A program made the translations under genes and the position numbers. DNA of 64,000 nucleotides from the IMG/VR virus record IMGVR_UViG_3300011871_000003; one strand, written 5' to 3'. Below, in pieces: positions 2,309 through 36,033 of this stretch. Within the stretch, counting starts at the first letter, position 1; each line of letters starts with the position of its first letter. The notes beneath the pieces are model-generated. The model saw nothing but the letters and a program-made list of their open reading frames with translations. It was not told the origin of the DNA and ran no database searches. This DNA is from an uncultured virus (IMG/VR IMGVR_UViG_3300011871_000003) (taxonomy: Duplodnaviria > Heunggongvirae > Uroviricota > Caudoviricetes).

Positions 2309-2869
2309 ATGAGTAAGATTTCAGAAATAAAAAGAAGAAAGGGTTTTTCATTATTAGAGTTATTGCTTGTTTTAGGTATAATAGCTGCTTTAATTGTTGC
2401 CGCTTTTATAGTTTATCCCAAAGTAAGAACCTCTCAAATAGTGGATGCTGAATCTAAAAACATAGCTACAATAAGAGGAGGATTGTTATCATTGTATTCA
2501 GCAACAACGGATATAACAACCGTTAACAATACTGTAGGAATCAATGCACAAATATTTCCTGATAATATGTTAGTGAAGAGTGGAAGCTCTGTAGTAGATG
2601 TTGTTAATGGTTTTAAAGGTAAAGTAACTCTATCAGCAACTAACTATGCTTCATATGGAAAGGTTGTATTTAATATAGGTTATGCGAATGTCCCTCAAGA
2701 TGCTTGCGTAAAACTTGTTGCTGCAGTTGCTCCAAGTATGTCAATAATCAATATTGGCGGAAGCATAGTGAAAAGCGATATATCGAATATAGATTGGAAT
2801 ATAGCGAATGCTGCTACAGCATGTAATTCTTCTGGAGTAAGCTCAACGATTTCTTTCTCTTTTTATTAA
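2309..2869 (+). CDS. type IV prepilin, PilS-like
   Basis: class III signal RRKG|FSLLE, hydrophobic helix, NGFKG.V, YANVPQDAC, second C-terminal Cys. Confidence 0.88.
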   Translation: MSKISEIKRRKGFSLLELLLVLGIIAALIVAAFIVYPKVRTSQIVDAESKNIATIRGGLLSLYSATTDITTVNNTVGINAQIFPDNMLVKSGSSVVDVVNGFKGKVTLSATNYASYGKVVFNIGYANVPQDACVKLVAAVAPSMSIINIGGSIVKSDISNIDWNIANAATACNSSGVSSTISFSFY

Positions 2870-9282: not shown

Positions 9283-10300
9283 ATGAAACATATTCAATCA
9301 GAAGATAAAAAAGTAACAAAATACCTCCNNNNNNNNNNNNNNNNNNNNNNNNNNNNNNNNNNNNNNNNNNNNNNNNNNNNNNNNNNNNNNNNNNNNNNNN
9401 NNNNNNNNNNNNNNNNNATACCTCCATGATAATGGCGCTGAAACATCAATAAAGTTAGCCTTATCAGGTGAATATGATGAAAACTTAAATTTACAACATA
9501 AAGATAATAATAAATACAGTATAGTGATTTCTGGAAGTGTTGGTTGTTTAATGTCATGTAAGTTTTGTCATATTACAACCAATAATATAAAACACAAAGA
9601 ACTAACCACAGGAGAAATCATATCTAATGTTATGGAATCTATTCAAAAGCAAGCTGAACTTACACCTGAAATAAAAAATAAGTTTATTAAGTTATGCTGG
9701 ATGGGATCTGGAGAACCATTAACTTATAGTGAAAAAGTCAAAGAAGCAACAAAAGAAATTGTGAAACAAGTTTTAGTGCAGAAACTTGCTGTAGGATTAG
9801 ATGGTGTAGATATCGCAACAACTTATCCTAAAACAAATAAATGGAAAAAAGATTTTTCTGAGCTAAATAAAGCGCTTAATAACATAGAATTAAATCCAAA
9901 GCATAATGGTAGTGCTTTACGTCTTTTTTATTCTTTACATAGTGCTTCAAATGCCACAAGAGAAAACTTAATACCAAACTCACGCTCTCCAGATAAAGCG
10001 ATGAGTGCTATATCAGAATGGTGTAAAACTAATAATGTAGATTTCATTATTCATCATATGTTTATCAATAATGTGAATGATAATATTTCTGATATTCGCT
10101 CTCTAAAAGATTTGTTAAGCAAAAATATAGGTGTAGCCACAGAATTTCGTATATTGCGCTATAACGCTCCTGACAATGGCACTAAAGAAAGCATCAAATT
10201 GAAAGAAATTGTGAGTGATTTAAAAACTTTCATACCTAAGATGAAAATCCAACATTCATCAGGAGCAGAAATAAAATCAGCATGTGGTCAATTTTTATGA
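9283..10300 (+). CDS. RlmN/Cfr-like radical SAM protein (spans N gap)
   Basis: CLMSCKFC cluster motif, MGSGEP, SLHSA, C-terminal SACGQF; ATG 9283 with GGAG RBS; gap flanks share ATACCTCC and join in frame as KYLHDNGAETSIK. Confidence 0.85.
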
Positions 10301-10993: not shown

Positions 10994-11533
10994 TTAATAA
11001 GATAAAAAGTATATTATACCATATTCATGTCTACTGCATTCATTAGCTAATAATGAAACATCAAGTTTACCATCATTCATAACATCAACAAGATTTTCAC
11101 CAATTCTTATTAAAGGAAAGTTAGAGCCTACAGCAGAAACAAGCTTAACACATTCTGCGGGAGGAACTCCGTTATAAACTATTTGAAATCCATCAGAAGC
11201 TGAAGAATTCATTGAAATAATAGCGCCAAACACACTAACATAACCTTTGAAACTATTGGTTAGCTGACCATCTTCATTAATCATATTATCTGGAGCAATC
11301 TTTGACTTTATAACTATATCATCAGATAAAGTATCATATGATGGCATAGAAGCATATAAAGATTTAACACCTGCTTGTAAAGCGGATATATTTTTAGCCT
11401 CTTGATCAACTCTTTGAGCAGATTGAACTTTAGGAAAAATAATAAAAGCAGCAACTATAAGAGCTGCAATAATACCTAAAACAAGCAATAACTCAAGAAG
11501 AGAAAACCCCTTATTTCTATTTATTTTATACAT
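10994..11533 (-). CDS. type IV prepilin, PilS-like
   Basis: RNKG|FSLLELLLVLGIIAAL, NSFKG.V, YNGVPPAEC, second Cys; start set at MYKIN (AGGAG RBS). Confidence 0.88.
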   Translation of the reverse strand: MYKINRNKGFSLLELLLVLGIIAALIVAAFIIFPKVQSAQRVDQEAKNISALQAGVKSLYASMPSYDTLSDDIVIKSKIAPDNMINEDGQLTNSFKGYVSVFGAIISMNSSASDGFQIVYNGVPPAECVKLVSAVGSNFPLIRIGENLVDVMNDGKLDVSLLANECSRHEYGIIYFLSY

Positions 11534-11632
11534 AAATACTCCTTTTTTATTAAACATATTATTGAAATCATTATCTTTTTATGATATGTTTACACAATAT
11601 ATAAACTTAACTAAAATTAAATGGAGAAAGTA

Positions 11633-11926
11633 ATGAATCCTAATAAAAAACTTCTTAAAATCCTGACTATTGTTTTATTATCTTTATCAAGTCAAACTTA
11701 TGCAGACAATAATAAAGTCTCATCGGTAGTAACTTTTAAAGCAATAGCAGTAAAAAATAGTTTTAATAATATAGATTTAAAAAATCAGGAATCGCCATTA
11801 AAATTAGTTTCACAATCAAAGACAGAAAACAGGGATTATTTACTGTTGAAAAATAATAAAGTAGTAGAAAAAATAAGTATTCCAACTAAAGTGACGACAG
11901 ATAACTATTACTGGTCAAACAATTAA
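11633..11926 (+). CDS. small secreted protein
   Basis: Sec signal ending TYA|D; divergent from pilin gene. Confidence 0.6.
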   Translation: MNPNKKLLKILTIVLLSLSSQTYADNNKVSSVVTFKAIAVKNSFNNIDLKNQESPLKLVSQSKTENRDYLLLKNNKVVEKISIPTKVTTDNYYWSNN

Positions 11927-12318
11927 TATATCTACGTAATTTTAGTTATTATCACTATTATTATGCTATATATCTCTAGAAATATTAACACTCAGCAGTG
12001 ATGAAATTCTCAGATTCCCTGCTGAAGGTTTATTACTATAATAAAAAAATATTTAAATATTCCTGAAGCTTTTCTTACTCATTAATAATAAAAATTATTG
12101 ATATACAACATTTATTATTATTGGAATGTTTTTTACATTTTTTATAAGAAATCATAATTAAGAAATATGTTACGTAAAAATTAGGTATTATCAATAAAAT
12201 AAATGATTACTTTTAATATTAATGGATGAAAGGTGTCTTGTTTAAAAAGATGTTAAATAAAAATAGATGAATTATTAAATTAATAAATAAAAAAGGAGGG
12301 GTAACCTCCTTATATTAT

Positions 12319-13914
12319 TTAATGTGTGCCATAGGTTGCATCATAAACATCTTGTTTTCTTGAGAAGTGAATATCTGTCTCAAGTGGATAGTTGTCGCAG
12401 AATTTAGGGCTGCGTTTAAACCATATAGATATATGATCGTCGAAATTAAATATATCAAAGTTACTGTTAGAAACCATAGGTTTTATTTTATTGTCACAAA
12501 TATGATTCCACTCATCTAAATTATCTAAAACAAATCCACCTTGTAGATTAGGTATATTACGTGCTCCAACATTATATGTTTTAAAGAAGTTGGTATTATC
12601 CGCATACATTAATCTATAAATGAAATTATGTTCAACTAAAGCAAGTCTAACAAATGAGGAAGTAGCTGTTCTACCATAGAGATTAACTTTTTTATCGCCT
12701 ATTTCTTCTCTATGATCTTCCATCTTCATGGCAATACTGTCATAAACATAACGTTTGTAATTAAAATCATGTTTTAAGGCGCTTCCATATACAAACGAGA
12801 ACCCACATACAGCTAATAAGGTAGCTCCAATAAAGAACATATTAATATATCCTTTTTTATCTAAGAAATAGAAAGACATTGCTCCAGCCATAAAGAAAAT
12901 ACCAACTATAGGAAAATCTCGTGGATTAAAGAACAATTCTCTTAAAAGTATAAATGGTCCCCAAATAGTTAAGAATAAAGTAAATGGAAGAGTGATTAAA
13001 AGCATACTTAATATCCACTTGCTTTCAAATCTGTATTCTTTATTCTGACTATTTTTAATGATTAAATAAATAATATTAATGAACATCATTCCAAAAGCGA
13101 CTTTAGCTAAATAATACATTTTTTCGCTTTTAAATGACTGGCACATATCTATAAATTCTTTAATAGAATATTCATAGCTAAAGAATAAGCTATTTATTGT
13201 AGGTTCTATCATATCACTTCTGAAAGCTACATCAGGATATACATATTTAAAAGCAGCCGCACATCCTAAATAATAAATAACACAAGATAATACATATATA
13301 GAACCATGATAGATAGTAGATTTTAAGATATTCTTATTTGTTTCTTTAAATTGGAACATTAAGTTAATTAAAAATAATCCAATATACATATTACTTGTAG
13401 GTTGATAAAGAGCGCTAACACCTACCAAGAATAACAATTGTATAATATAGGTTTTTATCTTAGATTCATTTTGATAAAAGAAAGCTAAAAGGATAAACCC
13501 AACAGAAAACATATTTCCGATAGAGTCGAATTGATATGATAAGTTCTGAATAAAAAATGGGTTACATGCTAATAATGTGAAAGGTAAAATATTAACCAAA
13601 TTTTTCTTTGGAAGCATTTTATCTGTAGCATAACAAACGGTATATGCAAAGAATAAAGTGCCAAATATTAATGGTATAGGTCCAATATTGTATATTGGAT
13701 TAATATTAAAGTTGAGTAATGCTATAAGAATAGTGGTTAAAGGTCTACCTTCATATTCCCATTGTCCTAAACCATTATCCATACGTGTAGTGTCATCCAT
13801 ATAAGGCACATCAGCCAATATAAGAGATAAAATAAATATCATACAGAAACCCAGCACAATACTAAACTTATATCCACCGCTGAATTCCCTTTCAATAAAA
13901 ACTCTTTTCAACAT
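12319..13914 (-). CDS. GtrII-like (GT-C fold) membrane glucosyltransferase
   Basis: YMDD..R..G...W..EGRPL, NPFFIQNLSYQFDS, LYQ motifs; about 10 TM segments plus soluble C-terminal tail. Confidence 0.85.
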   Translation of the reverse strand: MLKRVFIEREFSGGYKFSIVLGFCMIFILSLILADVPYMDDTTRMDNGLGQWEYEGRPLTTILIALLNFNINPIYNIGPIPLIFGTLFFAYTVCYATDKMLPKKNLVNILPFTLLACNPFFIQNLSYQFDSIGNMFSVGFILLAFFYQNESKIKTYIIQLLFLVGVSALYQPTSNMYIGLFLINLMFQFKETNKNILKSTIYHGSIYVLSCVIYYLGCAAAFKYVYPDVAFRSDMIEPTINSLFFSYEYSIKEFIDMCQSFKSEKMYYLAKVAFGMMFINIIYLIIKNSQNKEYRFESKWILSMLLITLPFTLFLTIWGPFILLRELFFNPRDFPIVGIFFMAGAMSFYFLDKKGYINMFFIGATLLAVCGFSFVYGSALKHDFNYKRYVYDSIAMKMEDHREEIGDKKVNLYGRTATSSFVRLALVEHNFIYRLMYADNTNFFKTYNVGARNIPNLQGGFVLDNLDEWNHICDNKIKPMVSNSNFDIFNFDDHISIWFKRSPKFCDNYPLETDIHFSRKQDVYDATYGTH

Positions 13915-13930
13915 TATTTAATTTCCTCTA

Positions 13931-15505
13931 TTATTTACTTTCTAAAGCATGTTGTTTAATATCAAATCGACTATCAACATCAGTTGGGTAATTATTACAA
14001 AATGTAGGTTCTCTTTTAAACCAAACAGAAATATGATCATCAAAGTTAAATATTTCATAGTTTCCGTTTTTTACAAGTGGAGCTATTTTATTCTTACAAA
14101 TAGCGTTCCATTCGTCTAAGTTATCCATGATAACACCGCCCTGAATATTATAAACATTACGAGCAGCTATACTATATTCTTTAAAGAAATTAGTATTATC
14201 AGGAAATATTAGTTTTGATAAAAATGGTCTAACCTCAAATGCTTTTCCGATATATGATGTCATAGCATGTCTTCCATAAACATATATTTTTTTATCTCTT
14301 ATTTCATCCATATTTTGCTCTATATTATTACTAATGCTATCATATACATATTTCCTATATGTATAATCTTGATTAAGAGCATTCCCATACATATAAGAGA
14401 AGGAAAACACACATAAGAATATAGCAATATTAAAAATGATGTTTATAAAGTATTTTTTATCTACAAGAGAAAAACTAAAAGCTATAAGCATACAAAAAAC
14501 ACCCATAACAGGAAAATCTCTTGGATTAAAAAAGAGTTCTTTTAATAAAATAAAAGGTCCCCATATACTAAATAAAAGTAATAGAGGTATTAAAATCAGT
14601 ATTAGTATAGAATGAATTTGTTCTTTATGTTCTATATTTGATTTTGTAATATTATAAATTCTATAAATAATATTGATAGGTAATAAAATAGCAGCAATAA
14701 TAATTAAATATAGGGAGATATCCTCTTTAAAATAAGCAAAAAGATTCATGAGTTCGTTCATGGAGAACTCATATGAAGCCATTATCTGATTAATATTGAT
14801 GAGATGATTTCTATTAGCTTGTTCAGTAAATAAAAAAGAAAATCCAATAAAATATAAAACATAATAAATAAGTATTCCAAATAAATAATAAGAAATGTGT
14901 CTTAAAGTATATTCCAGTATACTTTCATTATCCTTTTTAGAAATATTAAATAATATGCTAACACAAAATAAAGCAATATACATATTGCTTGTTGGTTGAT
15001 AACTTGCGCATGAAGAAGCTATTAATAAAGAAGATACTAAAAACTGTTTATATTTATTATCATTTTGATAGAAAAAAGCTAAAAGAATAAACCCAACAGA
15101 AAATAGATGCCCTATTGAATCATATTGATAAGACATATTTTGTAAAAAGAATGGATTACAAACAAGTAAAATAAATGGAAAAATATTTAGAATCGTATTT
15201 TTTAAATTCATTTTATTTGTTGCATAATAAACAGAATATGAAAAGAAAAATATGCCAACCAATAAAGGAAGTGGGGCAACATTGTAAATAGTTGTGAAAT
15301 TAAAATTTAAAAGTTTAAATAATAATGTTGTAAGAGGTCTTCCTTCGATTTCCCAATAGCCATAACCATTATCAAGACGAGTGTGATCATCCATGTATGG
15401 AACATTAGCAATGATAAGAGGGAGAACAAAAAGCAAACAAACAAAAAGAATAAGATTGAACTTATCCTTTCCTTCAAATTCCTTTAATGATAAAATGTTA
15501 AGCAT
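13931..15505 (-). CDS. GtrII-like membrane glucosyltransferase, tandem paralog
   Basis: same motifs (YMDD, EGRPL, NPFFLQNMSYQYDS); colinear with 12319-13914; start set at MLNIL (AGGAG RBS). Confidence 0.85.
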   Translation of the reverse strand: MLNILSLKEFEGKDKFNLILFVCLLFVLPLIIANVPYMDDHTRLDNGYGYWEIEGRPLTTLLFKLLNFNFTTIYNVAPLPLLVGIFFFSYSVYYATNKMNLKNTILNIFPFILLVCNPFFLQNMSYQYDSIGHLFSVGFILLAFFYQNDNKYKQFLVSSLLIASSCASYQPTSNMYIALFCVSILFNISKKDNESILEYTLRHISYYLFGILIYYVLYFIGFSFLFTEQANRNHLININQIMASYEFSMNELMNLFAYFKEDISLYLIIIAAILLPINIIYRIYNITKSNIEHKEQIHSILILILIPLLLLFSIWGPFILLKELFFNPRDFPVMGVFCMLIAFSFSLVDKKYFINIIFNIAIFLCVFSFSYMYGNALNQDYTYRKYVYDSISNNIEQNMDEIRDKKIYVYGRHAMTSYIGKAFEVRPFLSKLIFPDNTNFFKEYSIAARNVYNIQGGVIMDNLDEWNAICKNKIAPLVKNGNYEIFNFDDHISVWFKREPTFCNNYPTDVDSRFDIKQHALESK

Positions 15506-15681
15506 GTAAAACTGGCTCCTAATTTTTGAATATATTCTCATTGTTTATACAAACATAGCAAATTTTTAACAGGAAAAGCAAAAAAAACAAGATTGATGTA
15601 AACTTTTTGTTGTGCATGATAAAAAATTTAAGTATAATGTTTTTATCAAAATCAAACTGTTCATAATCTAAGGAAATAAAC

Positions 15682-16302
15682 ATGTTTAAGAAAATTACTG
15701 CTGTTCTCTTTGTTTTAGCATTAGTTGGTTGTTCTTCTGTCCCTAAAGAACCTGCTAAATACGTTGCTTTTCAAGAAAGTAAAACAAGTATTAAAGGAAA
15801 CCAAAGAGTTACTGAAACTTTCTTTGGTAGTGGAGTTCAATGGAATAAAGATTATGTAGTAACTGTTAAGCATGTATCTTTTATTAAAGATATTGCTTAT
15901 CAATCAGCAGATGGTATCGATATTCAGTTTGTTAAAAAATCGGCTGACAACGTAGTTATTCCACAATGGCGAGATCGTGTAGCGGGTGAGAGCGTCATTG
16001 TTGTAGGCTTGAATCAAAAAAGTAAAACAGAAGTATCTCAAGGTAAAGATCTAGATATTTCAGATGGTGATGGTGAGAAGATTTTGTATGTTACCTCGGC
16101 TCAAACAGTAGGTGGACAATCTGGTGGACCTGTATTTGGATCTGATGGTAAAGTTATTGGTATTCACTTTGGGGAAACTACAGGTATGAGTAATGGTAAA
16201 CTGGATGAGGCTTTTAAAGGACATAATTATAAAAAGTTTTCACTATATATTCCATATTCTGTAGTTAAGCAGGAATGGGATAAGTTCAATAAAGCGAAAT
16301 AA
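15682..16302 (+). CDS. lipoprotein trypsin-like serine protease
   Basis: lipobox LVG|C, VTVKH (His), DI (Asp), GQSGGP (Ser). Confidence 0.82.
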   Translation: MFKKITAVLFVLALVGCSSVPKEPAKYVAFQESKTSIKGNQRVTETFFGSGVQWNKDYVVTVKHVSFIKDIAYQSADGIDIQFVKKSADNVVIPQWRDRVAGESVIVVGLNQKSKTEVSQGKDLDISDGDGEKILYVTSAQTVGGQSGGPVFGSDGKVIGIHFGETTGMSNGKLDEAFKGHNYKKFSLYIPYSVVKQEWDKFNKAK

Positions 16303-16358
16303 TAAACAAACCCTGCCGACAGACAGGGTTTTATTTTTAAATAAATGGAGTTTTACAA

Positions 16359-16925
16359 ATGAAATTTTTTATCTTTATGATTGTTATCTTTATTTCTGGC
16401 TGCCAAACAAATTTAAAAAATAAGCATAGTTATGAAGTAAGTAATAATCCGCAAAATAAAATACTTTCACAAGGTATAGGAACACAATTTCCATACAAAC
16501 AAAAATATAGCTTAACGGCAGCTCATGTAGTAGATAAAGAAAAACAGATTCTATCTAAGCATGATAAATGTGATGTTGCTTTAATATACAAATCTTATAA
16601 AGCTTCTAATAATGATCCAATATTTGCTGAATCAAAAATTAATGAAAAAGTAGTAGCCTACGGTTTCCCTCATGGTAATAAAAAAGAAGTTGAATTATCA
16701 GGTAAAATAATTGGTTATAAAAATGTAACTAATGGTGATTATACAAAAGGGTGTGCCGTAGCTATTATGGATTTTAATGTCGAAAAGGGAATGTCGGGAG
16801 GACCAGTTTATAACAATAAAAATCAAATTGTAGGTGTTATTTTTGCTACTGATAAATACAAAAGACAATCCTATATGGTTCCTTATGAAAGTATAAAAGA
16901 TTGGTTAAATAAAAATAGAATATAA
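16359..16925 (+). CDS. lipoprotein trypsin-like serine protease
   Basis: lipobox ISG|C, LTAAHV, DVAL, GMSGGPV. Confidence 0.85.
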   Translation: MKFFIFMIVIFISGCQTNLKNKHSYEVSNNPQNKILSQGIGTQFPYKQKYSLTAAHVVDKEKQILSKHDKCDVALIYKSYKASNNDPIFAESKINEKVVAYGFPHGNKKEVELSGKIIGYKNVTNGDYTKGCAVAIMDFNVEKGMSGGPVYNNKNQIVGVIFATDKYKRQSYMVPYESIKDWLNKNRI

Positions 16926-17133
16926 AACTAATGTCGTAATATATAATAATATAATAATTTACTATATATTAAATAATAAAATATAACTTCACTAATATCA
17001 ATTATTAAAGATTTATATACTTAATAAAACCGCTTATCTAAATTATTATCATTATTGTTTATGAGTTGTTGTTTTTATTTGCATTAACTATATTATTTAA
17101 GGAGGATATTCTTATTTAATAATAGGTGAAAAA

Positions 17134-18999
17134 ATGAAGATTTTAAAAAGAAAAGGATTTTCCTTAATGGAAATGATGTTAGTGTTAGGGGCTTTTGCAG
17201 CGATTGTTGCAATAGGTTTTTGGATATATAGCATTGCCTCAGAAAGACAACGAATAAATACAGCACAAAAACAGCTTGCTTCTATACAAAAAGGAATAAG
17301 TGATATGTCAGGAATTTATTCTGATATCGATGAAGCGAGAACAATGTTATTAGGCAGTAAAACATTGCCAAGTAATATGATTAGTGGTTCAACGTTAGTT
17401 AATCCTTGGAAAGGTAAAATAACAATAACACCTCATAATGGAAGTGCTACTTTTTATGATGTTTCCTATTATAATGTTCCATCTAGCTCTTGTATAGATT
17501 TAGTCAATAAATCTCGTGTTTTTTATAGAACTGTAACGTCTACTAATTCTTCATTAACCAGTACAGATAGTGTAAATGGTATTGTAGATTTTTGTTCTAA
17601 AATATCTAAAAATGATGCTATAGTATTTTCTAACTTTTATACTGGTGACACCGTATATGAGGCCAGTGTTTCAAATAGTGTATCAACTTCAACGAGTGTA
17701 TCATCATCAATAAGTGCATCCACAAGTATATCAGCCTCAACTAGTGCTTCTAAATCAATAAGCACATCAGCGAGTATTTCGAATAGTATAAGTGCTTCTA
17801 CATCTACAAGTATTTCAAATAGTATAAGTACATCTCTATCAACTAGTGCTTCTAAATCAATAAGCACATCAGCAAGTATTTCGGCAAGCACCAGTACTTC
17901 TAAATCAATAAGCACATCGGTAAGTAATAGTTTGAGCGCTTCAACGTCAAATAGTATATCTAACAGTATAAGTGCTTCAAAATCATTAAGTACCTCAGTA
18001 AGCAATAGTATTTCAAGTAGTGCGAGTGCTTCAATATCGAGAAGTATATCTACAAGTGTAAGTGCTTCAACATCAGCAAGTCTTTCTAATAGTATAAGCT
18101 CAAGTGTTTCGGCATCAAAAAGTGCTTCAACCTCAGCTAGTTTATCTATTAGTGCCAGTGCTTCTAAAGTTGCCTCATTGAGTGCTTCGCAATCAGCGAG
18201 TATAAGTGCATCCAAATCTGCTTCTACTTCTGCAAGCTTGAGTGCCTCAACATCTTTATCATTAAGTTCATCCAGATCTGCTTCAATATCAGCAAGTGTT
18301 TCCAATAGTATAAGCTCAAGTGTTTCGGCATCAAAAAGTGCTTCAGCCTCAGCTAGTTTATCTATTAGTGCCAGTGCTTCTAAAGCAGCCTCATTGAGTG
18401 CTTCTCAATCAGCTAGCATAAGTGCTTCAAAATCTGCCTCTACTTCAGCAAGCTTGAGTGCTTCAACATCTTTATCATTAAGTTCATCCAGATCTGCCTC
18501 TACTTCTGCAAGCTTAAGTGCTTCAAGATCTGTTTCAACAAGTGTGAGTGCATCAGCGTCTTTAAGTGCCTCAAGATCATTAAGTACAAGTAGATCCGTA
18601 AGCACATCAGTTTCTATATCAAAAAGTATTTCAACAAGCCTTGCTAATAATGTAAACAAAGGAAATACGGTATTAACAACAGCGACACCAAATATTAAAT
18701 GTATAATTGGTAATGGTGGTGCAATGATGGGTAAATATTTATGTAGTATGACAGCTATGAGTGTAGGTGGAATAACATGGAAATTTACTTATTCTACATT
18801 CTATAATGCTCCAATAAAAGTAACGAATGCTCAAATAAATACGCCAAACGCTTTATTAAATTATTTAAATACATATAAGAGAACTTCCTACAAATTAACA
18901 GATTTTAATCTTACAGGAGATGCCGCTAGTATTTATAAACAAATATTAGCAAAATTTGCAAGTTCTGTATCAGGAACAAATTACGTAATAACATATTAA
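17134..18999 (+). CDS. type IV prepilin fused to about 325 aa Ser-X repeat stalk and unique C-terminal domain
   Basis: RKG|FSLMEM signal, pilin domain NPWKG...YYNVPSSSC...FC, then (S-x)n, then about 120 aa non-repeat tail. Confidence 0.85.
18088..18516 (+). repeat. 216-bp (72-codon) tandem duplication within the Ser-rich stalk
   Basis: AATAGTATAAGCTCAAGTGTTTCGGCATCAAAAAGTGCTTCA occurs at 18088 and 18304. Confidence 0.85.
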
Positions 19000-19212
19000 A
19001 ATATAAATAAAATACATAATAACTTAAATATATGTAAACATGTTAAAAGAGTAAATATACGACCGTATGTTTACTCTTTTTTTATTAATAAAATAATACA
19101 AAACATCATATATTATAGAATATAAAAATTATTAGCTTAGTAATATTGTTTTATTCTCTTATGAGAGTATTATTTAATAGACACATTTTGAAATATTTAG
19201 AGGATTTATAGT

Positions 19213-20595
19213 ATGAAAAAAGTAAAGGGAAAAGGTTTTTCTTTAATGGAAATGATGCTGGTTTTAGGATCTATAGCAGCAATTGTTGCTATAGGGTTTT
19301 GGATATATAGCATAGCATCAGAAAGACAAAGGGTAAATACTGCTCAAAAACAACTAGCATCTATACAGAAAGGTATAGAAGATATGTCAGGGATCTATTC
19401 TGACATTGATGAAGCAAGAACAATGTTGTTACAAAGTAAAGTTTTACCAAGCAATATGGTAAGCGGCTCTGATTTAGTAAACCCTTGGAGAGGTAAAATA
19501 ACAATAACTCCAAGAAATGGAAGTAATAATTTTTACAACGTTTCTTATTATAATGTCCCATCAAACTCATGTATAGATCTTGTAAATAAGTCTCGTGTAT
19601 TCTATAGAACTGTAGAGTCTTCAAACTCTTCTTTAGCTAATACTGGAAGTGTTAATAATGTTGTAGATTTTTGTTCTAAAATTGGAAAAAATGATTCTAT
19701 AGTATTTTCTAACTTTTATACTGGTGATACGGTATATGAAGCCAGTGTTTCGAATAGTATTTCTACATCAAATAGTATATCTACCTCAACAAGCGTTTCT
19801 ACTTCAATAAGTATATCAAATAGCATAAGTACAAGTATTTCAACATCTAAAAGTATAAGCTCAAGTATTTCAGCATCAACAAGTGCTTCAATAAGTAATA
19901 GTATAAGCTCATCAATATCTACTAGTACTTCAATAAGCAATAGTAAAAGTGCTTCAACATCAACAAGCATATCCAATAGTATCAGTGCTTCTAAATCAAC
20001 CAGTACTTCTATAAGTAATAGTATCAGTGCTTCGACGAGCACTTCAAAATCAATATCAGCAAGTGCTAGCGCATCAGCTTCTTTAAGTGCATCAAGATCT
20101 GTTTCAGCAAGTATAAGTTCGTCAAAATCATTAAGTACTTCAAGATCTGCCTCGATTTCAGCATCTACTTCTGCAAGTTTAAGTGCATCAAGATCTGTTT
20201 CTACATCTAAAAGTATAAGCATATCTAAATCTATTTCAGCCCCAGTTGTGGCCTCTGGTCAAAAAGATAACAATATGGTAAGCAGAATAAAAGGTAATAA
20301 AGTTTACTCAGCGCAGCCAGTTCCGCATTTAAATGGTTATATACTTGGTTATTTGGAATATATGTCATTTAATGTAAATGGTAAGATGTATTATGTTATG
20401 GCTAAAAATATGGGATTCGGTCTTGCTGGAGCGACAACAGCAAATACATATAGAATACCTGTAAACGTAGGTCAAGTTAAAAATATATCTAATGAAATAC
20501 AAGCAGCAACAACGGCTGCGCAAATGCAAGCTGTATTTAATAAGTATGGATTAGGAGCACTATATAATATATTACGAACTGGTTTCTATTATTAA
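19213..20595 (+). CDS. type IV prepilin with about 165 aa Ser-X stalk and distinct C-terminal domain
   Basis: pilin domain closely similar to 17134 gene; different tail. Confidence 0.85.
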   Translation: MKKVKGKGFSLMEMMLVLGSIAAIVAIGFWIYSIASERQRVNTAQKQLASIQKGIEDMSGIYSDIDEARTMLLQSKVLPSNMVSGSDLVNPWRGKITITPRNGSNNFYNVSYYNVPSNSCIDLVNKSRVFYRTVESSNSSLANTGSVNNVVDFCSKIGKNDSIVFSNFYTGDTVYEASVSNSISTSNSISTSTSVSTSISISNSISTSISTSKSISSSISASTSASISNSISSSISTSTSISNSKSASTSTSISNSISASKSTSTSISNSISASTSTSKSISASASASASLSASRSVSASISSSKSLSTSRSASISASTSASLSASRSVSTSKSISISKSISAPVVASGQKDNNMVSRIKGNKVYSAQPVPHLNGYILGYLEYMSFNVNGKMYYVMAKNMGFGLAGATTANTYRIPVNVGQVKNISNEIQAATTAAQMQAVFNKYGLGALYNILRTGFYY

Positions 20596-20738
20596 GTTAA
20601 AATTTAGGTAAATAAAAGGCTACTACGGTAGCCTTTTTAAATGATAATAATTATTATTTGTATTTGTTTGATCTTTTAAAAATAACAGGTTATTGTATTT
20701 AAGGATGTTTTATAAAATTATTTAGGAGTTTTTAGATT

Positions 20739-22106
20739 ATGTTTAAAAGGAAAAGTAAGGGATTTTCTTTAATGGAAATGATGCTCTCTTTAGGAGCTAT
20801 TGTTGCATTAATGGCTGTTATTTTGTGGGTATTTAACGTTATGTCTGAGAGGCAAAAGGTAAGTACGGCAATAAAAGGCTTAGGGTATATTCAACAAGCA
20901 ATGAATAAAATAGAAGGGTCTTATTCAAGTGTTGAAGAAGGGAGAAATATGATCCTTGGTGGAAATTTATTGCCAAGTAATATGAAACAGGGAAATAGAT
21001 TAGTTAATCCTTGGGATGGTGAAATAACAATAACAGATCATGATGGAACAAATGAATTTTATGACATTACTTATTATAAAGTAACAGAGAAATCCTGTCC
21101 AGATCTTGTAGGAAGATCAAGGCCATTATTTAAAAGTGTAATAAGAAAATCAGATACTAAAACAATAAATAGTGATTCATCAATAACTGATATAGTAACT
21201 TTTTGTAAAAACTCACTAAATGATGGGATTATATTCTCAAGTTATTACGAAGGCGATACAGTTTATAAAACAAGTGTTTCAACCAGTGTATCTAATAGTA
21301 TAAGCACCTCTGTATCCACAAGTGTATCAACATCAAAAAGTATAAGTACATCCGTATCAGCTTCTGTTAGTGCATCTGTTAGTGCGAGTGTGAGTGCCTC
21401 TACATCAGCATCTAAAAGTATTTCAACAAGCAAATCTATAAGTTCAAGCATTTCAACAAGTATAAGTGCTTCCGCTTCTGCTTCAAAAAGTGTATCAACA
21501 AGTGATAGTATATCAAACAGTATATCAGCATCTGCTGCCAATAATATAGATGCGGTGATGACCAGTAAAAGTATGTATTATGTAAGTGATGGTGGTCTAG
21601 ATGGTGTAGAAGAATGGTATGAATATAAAACTACAACAGGTACTTGTAGTTTTGAACATTACCAATATAATATGCCAGCTACGATACTAACAACTTTACC
21701 TCATGTAAATGCTATTCAAATGTCAAATATATTAAGTGATAGATACTATGTATTAAAAACAGGTTATAGTTGGGGGACAGGTAAATTAGCTTGTTCTTCT
21801 CATGCTACATATTGTGATTTAGGTGATTATGCAACTGCTGGAATTGGAAATATGTTTAGAATACCTAAAACATTAACGAATGCAAAAGTATATAGTGAAT
21901 TAAATGATCATATATTAGGCTCTGCCAATTTTCCAACAATAATGAATGAGTTTAGAAGATTATATTACAATGTTCCTTTCTCTCCAGCAGCTCGTGTGGT
22001 ATGGAGTTGCACGACAGGAGAAAGATCCTCATTAGCTCTTGATAATAAAAACAGAAAAGTAATATATCGAGTTGGTAATAATATAGTGTCTCAATATGGT
22101 TTGTAA
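20739..22106 (+). CDS. type IV prepilin with about 87 aa Ser-X stalk and Cys/aromatic-rich C-terminal domain
   Basis: [18 protein letters not shown]...SC, GDTVY, (S-x)n, about 190 aa tail with 4 Cys. Confidence 0.85.
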   Translation: MFKRKSKGFSLMEMMLSLGAIVALMAVILWVFNVMSERQKVSTAIKGLGYIQQAMNKIEGSYSSVEEGRNMILGGNLLPSNMKQGNRLVNPWDGEITITDHDGTNEFYDITYYKVTEKSCPDLVGRSRPLFKSVIRKSDTKTINSDSSITDIVTFCKNSLNDGIIFSSYYEGDTVYKTSVSTSVSNSISTSVSTSVSTSKSISTSVSASVSASVSASVSASTSASKSISTSKSISSSISTSISASASASKSVSTSDSISNSISASAANNIDAVMTSKSMYYVSDGGLDGVEEWYEYKTTTGTCSFEHYQYNMPATILTTLPHVNAIQMSNILSDRYYVLKTGYSWGTGKLACSSHATYCDLGDYATAGIGNMFRIPKTLTNAKVYSELNDHILGSANFPTIMNEFRRLYYNVPFSPAARVVWSCTTGERSSLALDNKNRKVIYRVGNNIVSQYGL

Positions 22107-22236
22107 GATAAGATAAGATAAAAAAGCAAAGCTATACTTTTCAGGTATAGCTTTTTTTTTGAAAAAAATAGCTTGCATGTTACAAAATGATTAGATATAA
22201 TGTTGTCATTATTTAATCTAAAACAATAGGTAAAAA

Positions 22237-22630
22237 ATGAAGAAAAGTGAACTGATTAAAAAATTAAATGAAATCAATGGAGATCCAGAAGTTCTTGTAT
22301 GGAATGGTTTTGTTGGTGATTATCAGAAAATTTCTTCAAACGTGGAAGAAACAATGTTGTTTAAGGAGTGNNNNNNNNNNTAAGAATTTAGTATTTGAGG
22401 AAATGAAAAATCGTAAAAGTTTTGACGAGCTTCCAGAAGATCTAATGGTTAAATTAAGAGCAGAAGCGAAGGAGTATGCCTCTAAAAGAGAGTGGGAACT
22501 ACGCAATTTATATTTTGATGATGAGACAGCAAAAAGAGTATACGGAAAAAACAAGAAAAAAGTTGTTATACTGGAACTAAAAAATAGAGGTAAAGAAGCT
22601 TTCGATAGACTTGGTACGTTTAGTTATTAA
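22237..22630 (+). CDS. phage-type hypothetical protein (spans 10-N gap)
   Basis: ATG 22237 gives MKKSELIKKLNEINGDPEVLVWNG; continues after gap in the tracked frame. Confidence 0.6.
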
Positions 22631-23068: not shown

Positions 23069-24163
23069 TTAAATATTGAATTTTGAAATAGTCTGATTTA
23101 AAAAAGATACTTTATTCTTAATATTATCAGAAAGTCTTACAGTATTAATAGATAAGTTAGAGTTTTGTTGAGTAATAATATTAATTTCATCAACAGAAAT
23201 ATTCACATTTTCTATTTTTTCTCTCTGATAAAAAGACGCCTGACTAATTTTAGATAAAGAATCATTGATTCGTTCAATCATAATAGAAATTTCTTTTATA
23301 TATTCTTCATTTTTATTATTCAATGAGACAACCTTTTTAATTTGCCATGAAGAATTCTCTACCAATTTTTTAATATCTTTTGCTGATGTAGCACAGCTTT
23401 GAGCTAAGTTTCTTATTTCAGATGCTACAACAGAAAATCCCTGTCCATAAGAACCTGCTCTTGCTGCTTCAATAGAAGCATTCAAAGAAAGTATATTAGT
23501 TTTAAATGCCATCTCACTAATAAAGTCTGATATCTTATTTATCTCGGAAGATTGTTCACTAATATTATTTATAGATAACGTTAGCGTTTTTGTATTATCC
23601 AATGTTTCTGAAATGCTTTCCAAAGTATGCTGGGTATGATTATAAACTTCTTTTGCCTCATTTTCATTTTGATGAGAAAAAGCATACAAGTTTTTTATAT
23701 TATCAGCAGTATTTTGAATAGAGCGGTGCTCTTGTTCTGTTCTAACTGAAAGTTCATCATTACCTTTCTGTAGATTATTTACTTCAATAGAAATATCTTT
23801 TGCTGATTGATTTATAACATTAACAATATTGATAATAGAGTTTTGCATATCTTTAATTTGAGGTATAAGTTTACCAGCACAGTTCATTCCAAATAAGTCT
23901 ATAGGTGTATTTATTTTACCTAATGTTATTTCTTTGAGAGCATCTTGAATTTTATTAATAGGTTTAACTAAATAAATAGTCATGTAGGTATATATAAAAA
24001 AAGTTATAAATAATAATAAAAAAGGAATGGATATAAAAAACTTCATTGCAATGGGCTTATATTCAGAAAAATATAGCAATAAAGGAATAAAACAATAAAC
24101 TGAAAACGAAAAAAGAATAAAACAAATAAGTGTTCTAACAGAAATATCTTTTAAAAATTTCAT
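23069..24163 (-). CDS. methyl-accepting chemotaxis protein (2 TM, HAMP, signalling domain)
   Basis: TNILSLNASIEAARAGSYGQGFSVVASEIRNLAQ hairpin motif; start set at MKFLK (GGAGG RBS). Confidence 0.9.
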   Translation of the reverse strand: MKFLKDISVRTLICFILFSFSVYCFIPLLLYFSEYKPIAMKFFISIPFLLLFITFFIYTYMTIYLVKPINKIQDALKEITLGKINTPIDLFGMNCAGKLIPQIKDMQNSIINIVNVINQSAKDISIEVNNLQKGNDELSVRTEQEHRSIQNTADNIKNLYAFSHQNENEAKEVYNHTQHTLESISETLDNTKTLTLSINNISEQSSEINKISDFISEMAFKTNILSLNASIEAARAGSYGQGFSVVASEIRNLAQSCATSAKDIKKLVENSSWQIKKVVSLNNKNEEYIKEISIMIERINDSLSKISQASFYQREKIENVNISVDEINIITQQNSNLSINTVRLSDNIKNKVSFLNQTISKFNI

Positions 24164-24377
24164 ACAGCCTCCTATGTTTTTAAATAAATAGCACGAAATA
24201 ACAAAAAAATAAAGATGACGCAAAAGAAATTTAACATTTAATGATAGATTGGAATAATCAGGAGAAAAAAGAAAGAAAAGGAATAAGTTCTTGAGAAGCA
24301 TGGGTAAGTACGATATAATCAAAACCTTAGTTAGATAATTTATAAATATGTCATTTTAAATAAAAAGAGGAAAAAAT

Positions 24378-25371
24378 ATGTCACATTTCGTCGTTGTTGT
24401 AGTCGGTGAAGAAAATCTTAAGCAAACTCTTGCTCCATTCCAAGAAAGTCCCTCAGATCCAAAAGAAAGTGGCTTTTGTGTATTTGTAAATAAAAACGAA
24501 GATAAAGAAGCTCAAGAAGATTATAAAACAGGTAAAACCGCTATTGTTGAACTTAATGGAATAAAATACAGTCGTTATAGTAGTGAAGTTCGTAAGTATG
24601 AAAAGTATGTAAATTCCAAAGATATTTTTGGAGAGAAAGTTTTAGAACTTCCAGAAGGATCTAAAGAGTATGAAGGTTCTTTAAGTATTCTGTATCCTAC
24701 TTTTGAGGATTATTTATCAGAATATTGTGGACATGAATATGACGAATCTCAAGGTGCTTACGGTTATTGGAAAAATCCTAATGCTAAATGGGATTGGTAT
24801 GAAATTGGTGGTGGTTGGACAGGTTTCTTTAAAGGTAAGGCGGCGGCTAAAGGTGTCTACTGGATCTCCGGGACTAATGACACCATCAGCAAAAGAAGGT
24901 TATTATGACAGGATCAGGATCAAAGACATCGACTTTGAAGGTATCGAAAAAGAGGCAATTCAAGACGCAAATAAAGTATATGATAAGATTGAATCCATTT
25001 TAAAAGGAAGAAAATATCCATCTTGGACAGAAATTCGAGAAAAGCATGGTGAAAAAATTGATGCTGCAAGAGAAGAGTATCGTAACCATGAAGTGGTGAA
25101 AGATTTTGACAAAGCTAAATTCTTTATTTGGGGTGATTTTTATGATGAATATGCTGCTTCAAGAGAGGAATATGTTGAAAAACGCCGTGTAGGAGCAATT
25201 GTTCCATTCGCCTTTGTTAAAGATGGTCAGTGGGTAGAGAAAGGTGAAATGGGTTGGTTTGGTATGACAAGTAATGAGAAAGAACAAAATGATTGGAACA
25301 AAGAGTTTTATGACATGATTAAATCTCTTCCAGAAGATACTCTGCTAACTGTTGTAGATTGTCATATTTAA
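24378..25371 (+). pseudogene. conserved phage-type protein split by a frameshift near 24830-24860
   Basis: NPNAKWDWYEIGG in first frame, continuation ...AFVKDGQW.EKGEMGWFG...VDCHI in +1 frame; intact shorter paralog at 27619. Confidence 0.7.
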
Positions 25372-33505: not shown

Positions 33506-35131
33506 TTAAAAATCTAAACATACAGAATTACATCCTGTTTTATGCCATTGCCTTATCCAACTGTTTCCGCTTTTATAAACATTACAATAATGTGAATCCT
33601 CTGCATTACCCACATAATTCATAGTACAGAATGTATGAACACCCATATTTTGAGATCCAGAATATTCTCCACCATTATAAAAAGAAACCTTTGGTGCTCC
33701 AGCCGCCTGCCAAGCTCCATTAACACAAGATAATGCTGCTCCATTGGATTGGCGACCTAATAAACCATTTGGGCTACAAGAGGCTCCAACTGTTGCAGTC
33801 TTTTGAAGATTGATAAACTCTCCTACGTTTACACGATTACTTGCATCAATATTGCCATTAGATTTTACATAACCTCCAATAATATTTCCTGAAGCCGTTA
33901 TAGAGCCACTACTATTTCCATCCCCAGAGATAGAGAAATCTCCTATATGATTTTGTTTACCCCAAACTTGGAATCGTTGCTCAGTGGTCAAACCACCCGA
34001 TCTCCATAAAGTTAATGGCTTATTTGAACCTAGTCTAAACTCATAGTCATTGGCATCGCCCCCTCCAATATAAAAAATATCTCCTCCTCCATTGCGACCG
34101 ATTAATTGTTTTCCAGAGGTTATATTACCATTAGCATTAACTTCTCCTATAGAGTTTATAGTCCCTGATTGTATAGCCCCTGAGACTTTTAGTAATGTGT
34201 TATTTTTATTGGCATCTGAAGGGCTTCCACCTGTAGAGGATGACCATAAAGATAAAGGTTTATTAGCTGTACCGAGATAAATCTCATAATCATTATTTGA
34301 AGTATCTCCCCCAATACGAATAACATCTCCATAACCGTTATGAGCTATAACTTCTTTTGCAGCTGTTATAGTTCCTCCAGATGTTATATTTCCTCCAAAA
34401 CTCCCCGTTCCTGATGCTGTTATATTTTTAGCATTATCAATATCTTGTCCTCCCATATTAAGATTTCCGGTCATAGGGAGCGTTCCATCACGGCGCAAGA
34501 AAGCAGAGTATAAAGATGCATTGTATCCTGCTCTAAATACTAATTGTCCGGGTTTAGTTATGTTGCTAAATGAAGATGATAGTTCACTCCAATTACCATT
34601 ATATCCATCAGCTTTGGTATTGGATTTTGTCATGCCACTGTCAACACCTGCTTTCTGCATTGCAAAACCCAATAAATCATATCGAGGATTATTTCCTGAC
34701 TCTATCCATGCTGCTGATGTTGTTATTAAAGCATCTAAGATATAGTTTGGACTTGAACCTGTTCTTTTTATTACTATGGAATATGGAGATCTAAAAGAAT
34801 TATTATCTACATAGCTATTGGGTAATATTCCTTCATTTTTTAATGTTTGTACTGATATAACGCATGTATTGCCGGAACATGTTCTTGGTCCGGGATCACT
34901 ACTTTGGCTGGAACTAGATGTTAGTGTTGATAGCTTATCATATCGAAGGGCTATATAGTTATTTACAGCATAGCCAATCCTTTGTATTTGCTCTCCTGCT
35001 GCCGATGCCTTCATTAAATCCTGTTCATTTTTCATATCCTGAAATTTAATAAATGAAGCCATTGTTCCGACACCTAAAACTAAAACTAACTCTACCAAAG
35101 AGAACGCTTTTTTATGATTTTTATATTTCAT
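33506..35131 (-). CDS. pilV: PilV-like (shufflon-type) type IV pilus tip adhesin
   Basis: KKA|FSLVE signal, shufflon N-domain, LRRDGTLPMTGNLNMGG, GASCSPNG...LSCVNGAW junction, Cys-rich C-terminal tip. Confidence 0.85.
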   Translation of the reverse strand: MKYKNHKKAFSLVELVLVLGVGTMASFIKFQDMKNEQDLMKASAAGEQIQRIGYAVNNYIALRYDKLSTLTSSSSQSSDPGPRTCSGNTCVISVQTLKNEGILPNSYVDNNSFRSPYSIVIKRTGSSPNYILDALITTSAAWIESGNNPRYDLLGFAMQKAGVDSGMTKSNTKADGYNGNWSELSSSFSNITKPGQLVFRAGYNASLYSAFLRRDGTLPMTGNLNMGGQDIDNAKNITASGTGSFGGNITSGGTITAAKEVIAHNGYGDVIRIGGDTSNNDYEIYLGTANKPLSLWSSSTGGSPSDANKNNTLLKVSGAIQSGTINSIGEVNANGNITSGKQLIGRNGGGDIFYIGGGDANDYEFRLGSNKPLTLWRSGGLTTEQRFQVWGKQNHIGDFSISGDGNSSGSITASGNIIGGYVKSNGNIDASNRVNVGEFINLQKTATVGASCSPNGLLGRQSNGAALSCVNGAWQAAGAPKVSFYNGGEYSGSQNMGVHTFCTMNYVGNAEDSHYCNVYKSGNSWIRQWHKTGCNSVCLDF

Positions 35132-35472: not shown

Positions 35473-36033
35473 ATGAATATTTTTTATAAAGATAAAAAAG
35501 GAAAAGGATTTTCTTTATTAGAGTTATTATTAGTACTAGGAGTTATAGCAGCTCTTATAGTAGGAGCATTTATTGTTTATCCAAAAGTAAGAAACTCGCA
35601 ATCAATAGATGCCGAGGCAAAGAATATTGCAACAATAAGATCAGGAATATTAGCTTTATATGCCTCTCAAGCAACAATATCAGGAGGATTAAATAACTCA
35701 ATAGCAATACAGGCGCAAATATTTCCAGACAACATGCTTATAAAAAATGGAAGCGCTGTTTCAAAAGTTGTAAATAGTTTTGGAGGGGACGTAATTTTAG
35801 TTACAGGTTTATGGTATGGAAAAACAGTAGCTACTTTACAATATAATAATGTTCCAACAGAGCTTTGTACAAAGTTAATTACCGCAGTAGGATCTAATAT
35901 GTTTTTAGTAACAGCAGGCGGATATTGGGCTTTGAATGAAAATGTTGGTGTTCCTTATAGTGTAGCAAACGTTTCAAAAGCTTGTGGTCAAATAACAGAC
36001 AATAATACAGTAATAAATTTCTATTTTGAATAA
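35473..36033 (+). CDS. type IV prepilin, PilS-like
   Basis: KGKG|FSLLE, IFPDNM, NSFGG.V, YNNVPTELC, second Cys. Confidence 0.88.
   Translation: MNIFYKDKKGKGFSLLELLLVLGVIAALIVGAFIVYPKVRNSQSIDAEAKNIATIRSGILALYASQATISGGLNNSIAIQAQIFPDNMLIKNGSAVSKVVNSFGGDVILVTGLWYGKTVATLQYNNVPTELCTKLITAVGSNMFLVTAGGYWALNENVGVPYSVANVSKACGQITDNNTVINFYFE

Follow-up and report, generated by a model that had tools for sequence, protein, structure and literature searches.

Type IV pilins with long Ser-X stalks beside a GtrC-type glycosyltransferase pair on a large phage-like element

The Ser-X repeats of Gram-positive serine-rich-repeat protein (SRRP) adhesins are densely O-glycosylated; GT-B enzymes glycosylate these proteins in the cytoplasm, the accessory Sec system exports them, and an LPXTG motif serves as their anchor. 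The modular pilins of Streptococcus sanguinis are likewise Gram-positive proteins, with short linkers and recognisable modules. In the SRRP adhesins Fap1, GspB, SraP and PsrP, the Ser-X dipeptide stalk is described as carrying the binding region (PMC7661464). For S. sanguinis PilB and PilC, the cited accounts portray a functional module grafted on a complete pilin module (PMC8179133, bioRxiv 10.1101/2022.08.25.505150), and CofB and TcpB are placed at the pilus tip (PMC6048534, PMC5207764). In Pseudomonas aeruginosa the GT-C arabinosyltransferase TfpW is encoded beside the group IV pilin PilA and, according to two preprints, modification of Ser/Thr can block pilus phages (bioRxiv 10.1101/2020.04.19.049825, 10.1101/150227). 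Here we describe a locus that combines elements of these systems. It lies in a stretch of 64,000 nucleotides from an uncultured virus (IMG/VR record IMGVR_UViG_3300011871_000003), referred to as the window, and has three modular pilins with long Ser-X stalks (SRR1, SRR2 and SRR3) next to two GtrII/GtrC-family glycosyltransferases (GT1 and GT2) and two lipoprotein proteases (Table 1). All nine genes that an earlier sequence-only reading had placed in this region are real, and each lies in the list of open reading frames (ORFs) where that reading had put it. The closest relative found, G001 (341,648 bp, 30.6% G+C), carries the same locus with 85–99% protein identity.

Pilins with Ser-X stalks and exchangeable tips

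SRR1, SRR2 and SRR3 share one layout, in which a (SX)n tract links an N-terminal part of about 177 residues to a C-terminal domain of 117–189 residues. All three N-termini hold a prepilin peptidase site with Gly-1, Phe+1 and Glu+5, and in an alignment of seven N-domains Glu+5 and two cysteines were invariant. SRR1 matched TIGR02532 (19.8 bits, cut-off 16.3), and the N_methyl score of SRR3 was below its cut-off (17.7 versus 21.2). The Pfam scan returned no family for SRR1 and SRR2 of the window, missing the pilin module; the SRR orthologues of G001 matched PilS above the cut-off (1.5e-14, 7.2e-14 and 5.4e-12). Shufflon_N (PF04917) was not matched at E ≤ 0.01 by SRR1–3 and is matched by a separate PilV-like gene. 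The AlphaFold2 (AF2) model of SRR3 has a 47-residue α1 helix (residues 11–57) and a β-sheet at a predicted local distance difference test score (pLDDT) of 60–80. Foldseek aligned its N-domain with TcpA (8uhf, 3hrv), CofA (9iuf, 3s0t) and PilS of Salmonella Typhi (3fhu), with probabilities of 0.99–1.00 and target-normalised TM values of 0.52–0.64. The module is also 44–47% identical, end to end, to a stand-alone 173-residue plasmid protein named 'type 4 pilus major pilin'. This protein belongs to low-GC plasmids of about 40 kb and was present in 114 of their records (Klebsiella 40, Escherichia 35, Citrobacter 9, Salmonella 8, Enterobacter 8, Shigella 6, and others). The N-terminal module of the SRR proteins is a complete type IVb pilin with a TcpA/CofA/PilS-like fold, and the pilin family counts 11 members among 5.8 billion proteins.

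The long Ser-X stalks that the sequence-only reading had described are present in all three pilins, with serine at 99–100% of alternate positions over 326, 166 and 88 residues, respectively. The positions in between are taken by Ala, Thr, Ile, Leu, Val, Lys, Asn or Arg; Pro and Gly are absent and there is a single Asp. The serine codons are a mix of AGY and TCN (in SRR1, AGT 57, TCA 49, TCT 28 and AGC 14), and the reading frame is kept in 17 homologues with stalks of 88–326 residues. The use of both serine codon boxes shows that serine is conserved in the protein itself and does not simply follow from a repeat in the DNA. Together with the frame kept in the homologues, the mixed codons ruled out the stalks as a chance feature. 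The length of the stalk varies at constant head and tip: 180, 232 and 326 residues in proteins of the SRR1 type and 166–278 residues in those of the SRR2 type, and the whole of SRR1 counts 621 residues in the window versus 552 in G001. In SRR1, a 216-bp unit is present in 2.1 copies at 18063–18512, and this duplication is recent. The pLDDT of the stalk in the AF2 model was about 23; an extended or disordered conformation is predicted.

The C-terminal domains of the 17 sequences comprise six tip types that are unrelated by BLAST. No Pfam or NCBIfam family and no usable match in the ESM Atlas was found for the tip domains. The tip of SRR3 was present in three clusters among 1.84 billion representatives, and that of SRR2 was found elsewhere in six SRR-type proteins only (459–507 residues). 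Four runs compared with the locus all consisted of contigs, which break inside the SX repeats. In the literature searched, no description of pilins with long Ser-X stalks and swappable orphan tips was found.

The glycosyltransferase pair and its linkage to the stalks

GT1 and GT2 are paralogues with 49% identity. PF14264 (GtrII) scored 118.2 bits with GT1 and 90 bits with GT2 (cut-off 30), covering profile positions 2–313 of 317. It was the sole family match of either protein at E ≤ 0.01; Wzy_C, typical of PglL/PilO/TfpO, was not found in either. The full profile of phrog_4829, labelled 'GtrC-like O-antigen conversion translocase', is covered by both proteins, and the identity with P22-type GtrC was 27.6–27.8% over 83% of GT1 (67 records of Salmonella, Enterobacter and Hafnia phages). 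The motif VPYMDD of GT2 follows directly on the first transmembrane helix, and the pattern Y-x-D-D...R after this helix was invariant in 12 homologues, including D51 and D52, which by analogy with other GT-C enzymes are presumably catalytic. By a hydropathy scan, the proteins have about nine transmembrane segments, and some 150 residues form a soluble tail. The clade of the pair consists of some 18 close clusters without a named member, separated by an E-value gap (7e-89 to 4e-26) from other GtrII proteins, and a search of the viral contigs of IMG/VR with a GT profile returned only G001.

The AF2 model of GT1 was confident, with a pLDDT of 82.6 and a predicted TM-score (pTM) of 0.85. Its 20 best structural neighbours (VIA) were GT-C-type membrane enzymes with Z-scores from 12.1 to 7.4, after which the scores dropped to 5.0. 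Among them were protein-modifying enzymes (Pmt1/2, AglB, STT3, Pmt4, PglB, DPY19), glycan- or lipid-modifying enzymes (AftA/B/D, ALG3/6/9/12, ArnT, PimE, glycosylphosphatidylinositol (GPI) mannosyltransferase I, EmbA/B) and three PIG-U chains of GPI transamidase. Since both kinds of enzyme are found in the top 20, the predicted GT-C fold matches protein- and glycan-modifying enzymes equally and is uninformative on the acceptor. The topology invoked by the sequence-only reading is sound and established for both families: pilins wait in the inner membrane with their C-terminal part, here the stalk, facing the periplasm, which is also the side on which GT-C enzymes act.

In the 341,648 bp of G001, GtrII was matched by two genes only, and 1.6 kb from them are the three SRR genes, which contain all (SX)n tracts of at least eight repeats that fall within an ORF; a further (SX)n tract of 38 residues is located outside any ORF of 50 residues or more. 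In G001, GT2 is followed after 198 bp by a PilS-like gene of the same orientation (L004:11830–12375). The window has about 300 bp of unrelated, non-coding sequence instead (within 11927–12318). Contigs of other runs show skips within this stretch, plus a 273-bp skip inside the PilS-like gene. Three metagenome loci (L026–L028) contain a near-identical cluster. Divergent relatives with DNA context were limited to seven plasmid-type loci (L031–L037), in which the pilin is stalk-less, and tblastn found no homologue of the GTs, the proteases, the small ORF or the tips in these seven loci. A stalk-less outgroup without GT fits a link between stalk and GT, and amounts to one lineage contrast, with two lineages in all. 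The L031–L037 plasmids are enterobacterial (about 40 kb, 32–35% GC), have a stand-alone pilin with 44% identity to the SRR head, and also carry DotA/TraY-like, ParA and ankyrin genes. The 25 kb annotated show no pilus machinery, and PLSDB classes the plasmid of L037 as non-mobilizable.

Further searches for relatives returned little. With the pilin profile, the viral contigs of IMG/VR yielded only G001 and one weak N-terminal match, and species genome contigs yielded three weak N-terminal matches (Rheinheimera, Methylococcaceae). Megablast of the locus gave no match in PLSDB, GenBank phages or complete E. coli genomes, and a distant blastn search against E. coli genomes gave none either; near-identical records possibly fell outside both searches. 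No match was obtained by tblastn of SRR2 and of the PilS-like pilin against phages.

Layout of the locus and the carrier element

Table 1. Features of the locus and related genes, in coordinates of the 64,000-nt window. Bare numbers in the last column are E-values.
Feature	Position	Strand	Basis and details
Further PilS-like pilin outside the locus	2309-2869	+	Pfam PilS 1.8e-19
PilS-like type IVb pilin, 187 aa	10994-11557	-	Pfam PilS 4e-20, Bundlin 3e-11, N_methyl 3e-06
Small secreted protein, 101 aa	11621-11926	+	Sec-type signal peptide read from sequence
Terminator-like hairpin, two-way, at end of GT pair	12293-12311	.	consensus scan alone
GT2, GtrII/GtrC-family GT-C glycosyltransferase, 531 aa	12319-13914	-	Pfam PF14264 2.1e-25; phrog_4829 8.9e-50
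GT1, GtrII/GtrC-family GT-C glycosyltransferase, 536 aa	13931-15541	-	Pfam PF14264 5.4e-34; phrog_4829 7e-57
140-bp divergent intergenic region, GT1/protease 1	15542-15681	.	ORF coordinates
Protease 1, S1-type lipoprotein, 206 aa, lipobox LVGC	15682-16302	+	Trypsin_2 1.4e-11; phrog_9683 1.1e-21
Terminator-like hairpin 3' of protease 1	16308-16331	.	consensus scan
Protease 2, S1-type lipoprotein, 188 aa, lipobox ISGC	16359-16925	+	Trypsin_2 6.3e-09; phrog_9683 3.4e-22
SRR1, modular pilin, 621 aa	17134-18999	+	pilin module aa 1-177; stalk aa 178-503 (nt 17665-18642); tip aa 504-621
Terminator-like hairpin, 16-bp stem, 3' of SRR1	19045-19080	.	consensus scan
SRR2, modular pilin, 460 aa	19213-20595	+	pilin module aa 1-177; stalk aa 178-343 (nt 19744-20241); tip aa 344-460
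SRR3, modular pilin, 455 aa	20739-22106	+	pilin module aa 1-178; stalk aa 179-266 (nt 21273-21536); tip aa 267-455
Terminator-like hairpin 3' of SRR3	22128-22154	.	consensus scan
PilV-like protein, 541 aa, outside the locus	33506-35131	-	Pfam Shufflon_N 1.8e-11; phrog_523 'tail collar fiber' 4e-38
Two further PilS-like pilins outside the locus	35473-36033, 36250-36816	+	Pfam PilS 1.9e-15 and 2.6e-18

The two proteases and the three SRR genes follow one another in the order protease 1, protease 2, SRR1, SRR2, SRR3, divergent from the GT pair across the 140-bp gap. The scan found 15 terminator-like hairpins (3.7 ± 2.3 in shuffled sequences), among which are those after GT2, protease 1, SRR1 and SRR3. 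Given the divergent GT pair and the hairpins between the genes, the locus is composed of several transcription units and is not a single operon. Promoter-like matches barely exceeded those in shuffles of this AT-rich DNA (95 versus 77.7 ± 7.9), and we therefore claim no promoter for the 140-bp region. The PilS-like pilin at the start of the locus scored 72.7 bits against PilS (cut-off 22), is 98.9% identical to its orthologue in G001, and has a 17-residue leader that ends in KG before the mature FSLLE. The product of the adjacent small ORF shares 79% identity with a 93-residue orthologue in G001 and had no Pfam, PHROG or NCBIfam match above threshold.

The proteases scored 45.7 bits (protease 1) and 37.1 bits (protease 2) against Trypsin_2 (cut-off 27.6). 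Their lipoboxes were read from the sequence and were also flagged in the near-identical locus L027. The His and Ser of protease 1 align with those of the staphylococcal V8 and SplB proteases (E 4.5e-05). The two proteases are 23% identical and have the His/Asp/Ser columns in common, the Asp being assigned by position alone. By sequence, both are S1-type proteases with intact catalytic residues. The proposal that they trim or shed the stalks found nothing in its favour; a third trypsin-like gene is located elsewhere in G001, about 50 kb from the locus.

G+C content is about 30% throughout the window. Three runs of N, 195 bases in total, are present at 9329–9417, 22371–22380 (just downstream of the locus) and 43216–43311, and break ORFs, for example at the start of a radical-SAM gene and at ORF 22268–22630. 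Nearby genes include a membrane protein with a methyl-accepting chemotaxis signalling domain (23069–24322, minus strand; MCPsignal 1.8e-32, phrog_8572 2e-64) and an ORF for a secreted protein of 103 residues. At 24378–25371 (plus strand), two overlapping ORFs of 176 and 222 residues both match phrog_10079. Locus L027 has a single 330-residue ORF at this place (15284–16276), which marks the pair in the window as a frameshift or sequencing error. The PilV-like protein of the window shares a 90%-identity cluster with a protein that NCBI names PilV tip adhesin. PilV-like (Shufflon_N) proteins that also match tail-fibre PHROGs are encoded by this gene (33506–35131, minus strand) and, in G001, at L020:8577–10244 and L021:9713–11263, and one PilV-like protein has a phage Tail Collar domain. 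This suggests that pilus tip adhesins and tail fibres have swapped parts.

The carrier is a very large AT-rich phage-like element linked to Enterobacteriaceae, of 341 kb or larger. G001 has 555 greedily called ORFs, mostly on one strand, with many PHROGs of unknown function and many ORFans of the jumbo-phage type. Its 34 tRNA genes form arrays in which Met-CAT, Leu-TAA and Arg-TCT predominate (L005 971–19778, L023 8528–9979, L015 5468–10447). Two tRNAs have the anticodon CTA, which would read TAG. Recoding of stop codons as the origin of the short ORFs of G001 was rejected, as reading TAG or TGA as sense gave no longer ORFs. The scans of G001 comprised 42 ORFs of at least 300 residues against PHROGs, 136 ORFs of at least 190 residues against Pfam and 15 further ORFs against Pfam; among the ORFs scanned there was no capsid, terminase, portal or polymerase family, and no tyrosine recombinase/integrase or Rci-type recombinase was found in G001. 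The scans of the window gave no tyrosine recombinase either. One protein is 39–50% identical to proteins of ~355-kb jumbo phages of Erwinia, Serratia, Yersinia and Pectobacterium. Exact copies of proteins of the locus occur on contigs of 1.30–1.37 Mb (six values), and NCBI labels some of the copies, or members of their clusters, as E. coli, Shigella or Salmonella. The carrier is possibly longer than the 341 kb examined; an origin of the contigs of 1.0–1.37 Mb as concatemers is not supported, their ratios to 341,648 bp not being integers. Sequencing runs with the locus came from 14 studies of wastewater, gut, groundwater and soil. A literature search for the carrier element found no matching description. 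A role in mating-pair specificity, which the sequence-only reading had offered, has nothing in its favour: the carrier looks like a giant phage-like element and not like a conjugative plasmid.

Two further genes of G001 are of interest. A 777-residue ORF with two GT4 (Glycos_transf_1) domains lies 72 kb from the SRR locus (79570–81903, plus strand; L039:571–2904); enzymes of the GT4 family glycosylate Gram-positive SRR adhesins. A five-domain, full-length MutS of 837 residues, about 42% identical to MutS of Salmonella and Ralstonia, is encoded at L019:517–3030 (minus strand), and is unusual for a phage-like element.

Acceptors of the glycosyltransferases and comparison with known systems

We favour the reading that the locus is an accessory cell-surface module of the phage-like element, in which the GT pair O-glycosylates the pilin stalks, and assign a probability of about 0.4 both to this explanation as a whole and to the stalk glycosylation in it. 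Host prepilin peptidase would cut the SRR pilins at Gly-1/Phe+1, and the cut pilins would stay for a time in the inner membrane, their stalk and tip reaching into the periplasm. GT1 and GT2 would then move hexose from a host undecaprenyl-phosphate sugar to the serines of the stalk, possibly also to neighbouring PilS-like pilins. Type IV machinery from outside the 341 kb would place the SRR pilins at the tip of PilS-like filaments, in the manner of PilV, CofB and TcpB. The glycosylated stalk would serve there as a protease-resistant spacer of tunable length that displays exchangeable adhesin tips. The probability given is based on circumstantial evidence, namely on the adjacency in G001 of the sole (SX)n genes to the sole GtrII genes, on the confinement of the GT clade to this lineage of elements, and on the order of GT2 and the following PilS-like gene in G001, which resembles pilA–tfpW, where the GT gene lies beside the pilin gene. 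It is also based on the advantage of an acceptor of its own for an element that meets varied O-antigens, as a transferase that travels with its acceptor would presumably pay more than one that depends on the surface of each host. A wider claim is more doubtful, namely that these GtrC-family enzymes are dedicated periplasmic protein O-glycosyltransferases, and that the element brings enzyme and (Ser-X)n acceptor and borrows lipid-linked sugar and type IV machinery.

Several observations weigh against stalk glycosylation. The kit pictured by the sequence-only reading is not self-contained: in G001, GtrA (PF04138) and GT2/GtrB (PF00535) had 0 matches, and neither the T2SSE ATPase (PF00437) nor prepilin peptidase (PF01478) was found. 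The window scans gave no GtrA or GT2/GtrB, and among its ORFs of at least 100 residues there was no assembly ATPase or peptidase, no search being aimed at secretin or platform families. Because G001 and the window lack both, the sugar donor and the pilus assembly must come from the host, a co-resident plasmid or unseen parts of the element, and are here assumed to be external. The GTs align with phage GtrC end to end in a collinear manner and have no additional domain, and every characterised GtrII/GtrC member known to us modifies O-antigen or another glycan, not protein. GTs and pilins, encoded on opposite strands, belong to different transcription units, and terminator-like hairpins separate the genes. 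In the RNA libraries the locus was present only as contigs, which give no sign of transcription, starts or levels. The loci with the full gene set belong to one shallow lineage, so that their conserved adjacency carries little weight, and in G001 the genes of the PilS-like, PilV-like and trypsin-like kinds are spread over more than 200 kb. As to the tips, the AF2 model was unusable (pLDDT 25–40), and their adhesin function is predicted from architecture alone.

Modification of the host O-antigen or lipopolysaccharide (LPS), for serotype conversion or phage exclusion, is almost as likely as glycosylation of the stalks; the pilins would then be neighbours by clustering of envelope genes, and the stalks unmodified flexible spacers. 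The full-length matches to Pfam GtrII and phrog_4829 and the resemblance to GtrC of P22-type phages point this way, as do the likely hosts, Enterobacteriaceae, in which O-antigen conversion is common. The GTs, moreover, are on the opposite strand with a terminator-like hairpin of their own, and other membrane or secreted accessory genes (the MCP-like gene and the 103-residue secreted ORF) are nearby. However, gtrB is annotated beside gtrC in P22-type phages, whereas the 341,648 bp have neither GtrA nor GT2/GtrB; an enzyme fixed on one O-antigen would suit an element of many habitats (14 studies) poorly; and the adjacency to the sole (SX)n genes would be coincidence. Glycosylation of the ordinary PilS-like major pilins in a TfpW-like manner, which would mask the filament from pilus-specific phages and leave the stalks aside as substrate, seems improbable to us. 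PilS-like genes flank the GTs, one of them 198 bp after GT2 in G001 and another kept in the window (10994–11557), and both phage defence and the glycosylation of a pilin by a GT-C enzyme encoded beside it have precedents in the preprints cited above (bioRxiv 10.1101/2020.04.19.049825, 10.1101/150227). Yet the co-directional pilin gene is missing from the window, where about 300 bp of unrelated DNA takes its place, so this linkage is dispensable, and the PilS-like pilins have no obvious Ser/Thr-rich acceptor patch (Ser fraction 0.10).

The SRR proteins might also stay in the inner membrane or in short pseudopili, where they would jam or re-purpose a type IV pilus or type II secretion system of the host, for example to exclude pilus-dependent competitors, with the stalk spanning the periplasm. 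We hold this to be unlikely. An element with at least nine PilS-type matches and no assembly machinery found in the 341,648 bp of G001 agrees with such a role, and an extended stalk of 88 residues would by simple arithmetic measure about 30 nm, close to the width of the periplasm. But six exchangeable tips and stalks of up to 326 residues resemble outward, diversifying binding modules, and the PilV-like proteins of the same element point to real filaments. Glycosylation of the stalks keeps our preference. If the wider claim on dedicated protein O-glycosyltransferases also holds, a virus-like element would display on pili a counterpart of the SRRP glycoadhesins that is Gram-negative and periplasmic. 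If GtrC-type enzymes modify the stalks, these would be a new class of acceptor for a widespread phage-borne family, and serine-rich-repeat glycoadhesins would have been re-invented by convergence in a diderm envelope. A carrier with many orphan pilins and no recognisable virion, replication or pilus-assembly genes in 341 kb also raises the matter of how a virus-like element makes use of host pili.

Compared with the described systems, the locus resembles PilA–TfpW in the position of a GT-C gene beside that of a type IV pilin, in a sugar donor supplied from elsewhere and in a Ser/Thr modification that would be periplasmic. It differs in the enzymes, a pair of paralogues of the Pfam GtrII family, and in the putative acceptor, a long (SX)n spacer in modular pilins rather than loops of the major pilin. 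With gtrABC of P22 and SfII it has in common the Pfam and PHROG family, collinear over the full length, and a phage-like carrier tied to enterobacteria; unlike these, it has no gtrA or gtrB, two tandem gtrC-type paralogues from a distinct clade, and pilins and proteases as neighbours. The Ser-X dipeptide repeat region of SRR1–3 is like that of the SRRPs, but SRR1–3 are anchored by a prepilin module and have no C-terminal LPXTG, and their candidate enzymes are GT-C proteins that face the periplasm.

Among pilins, the SRR proteins are built like R64/IncI PilV, CofB of enterotoxigenic E. coli (ETEC) and TcpB of Vibrio cholerae, with a pilin module followed by C-terminal domains for binding, a function that is putative in the SRR proteins, and their six tip types parallel the variable tips of PilV. 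Unlike in PilV, CofB and TcpB, Shufflon_N is absent from SRR1–3, variation is provided by paralogues and allelic tips and not by a shufflon, and no machinery is encoded near the genes; to our knowledge, a (SX)n spacer of 88–326 residues does not occur in PilV, CofB or TcpB. The modular pilins of S. sanguinis differ from them in turn, since the linker of the SRR proteins is a long Ser-X repeat and their modules are orphan domains. The SRR pilins are a new variant of modular type IV pilins, and extend the idea of the modular pilin to a spacer of tunable length with exchangeable tips.

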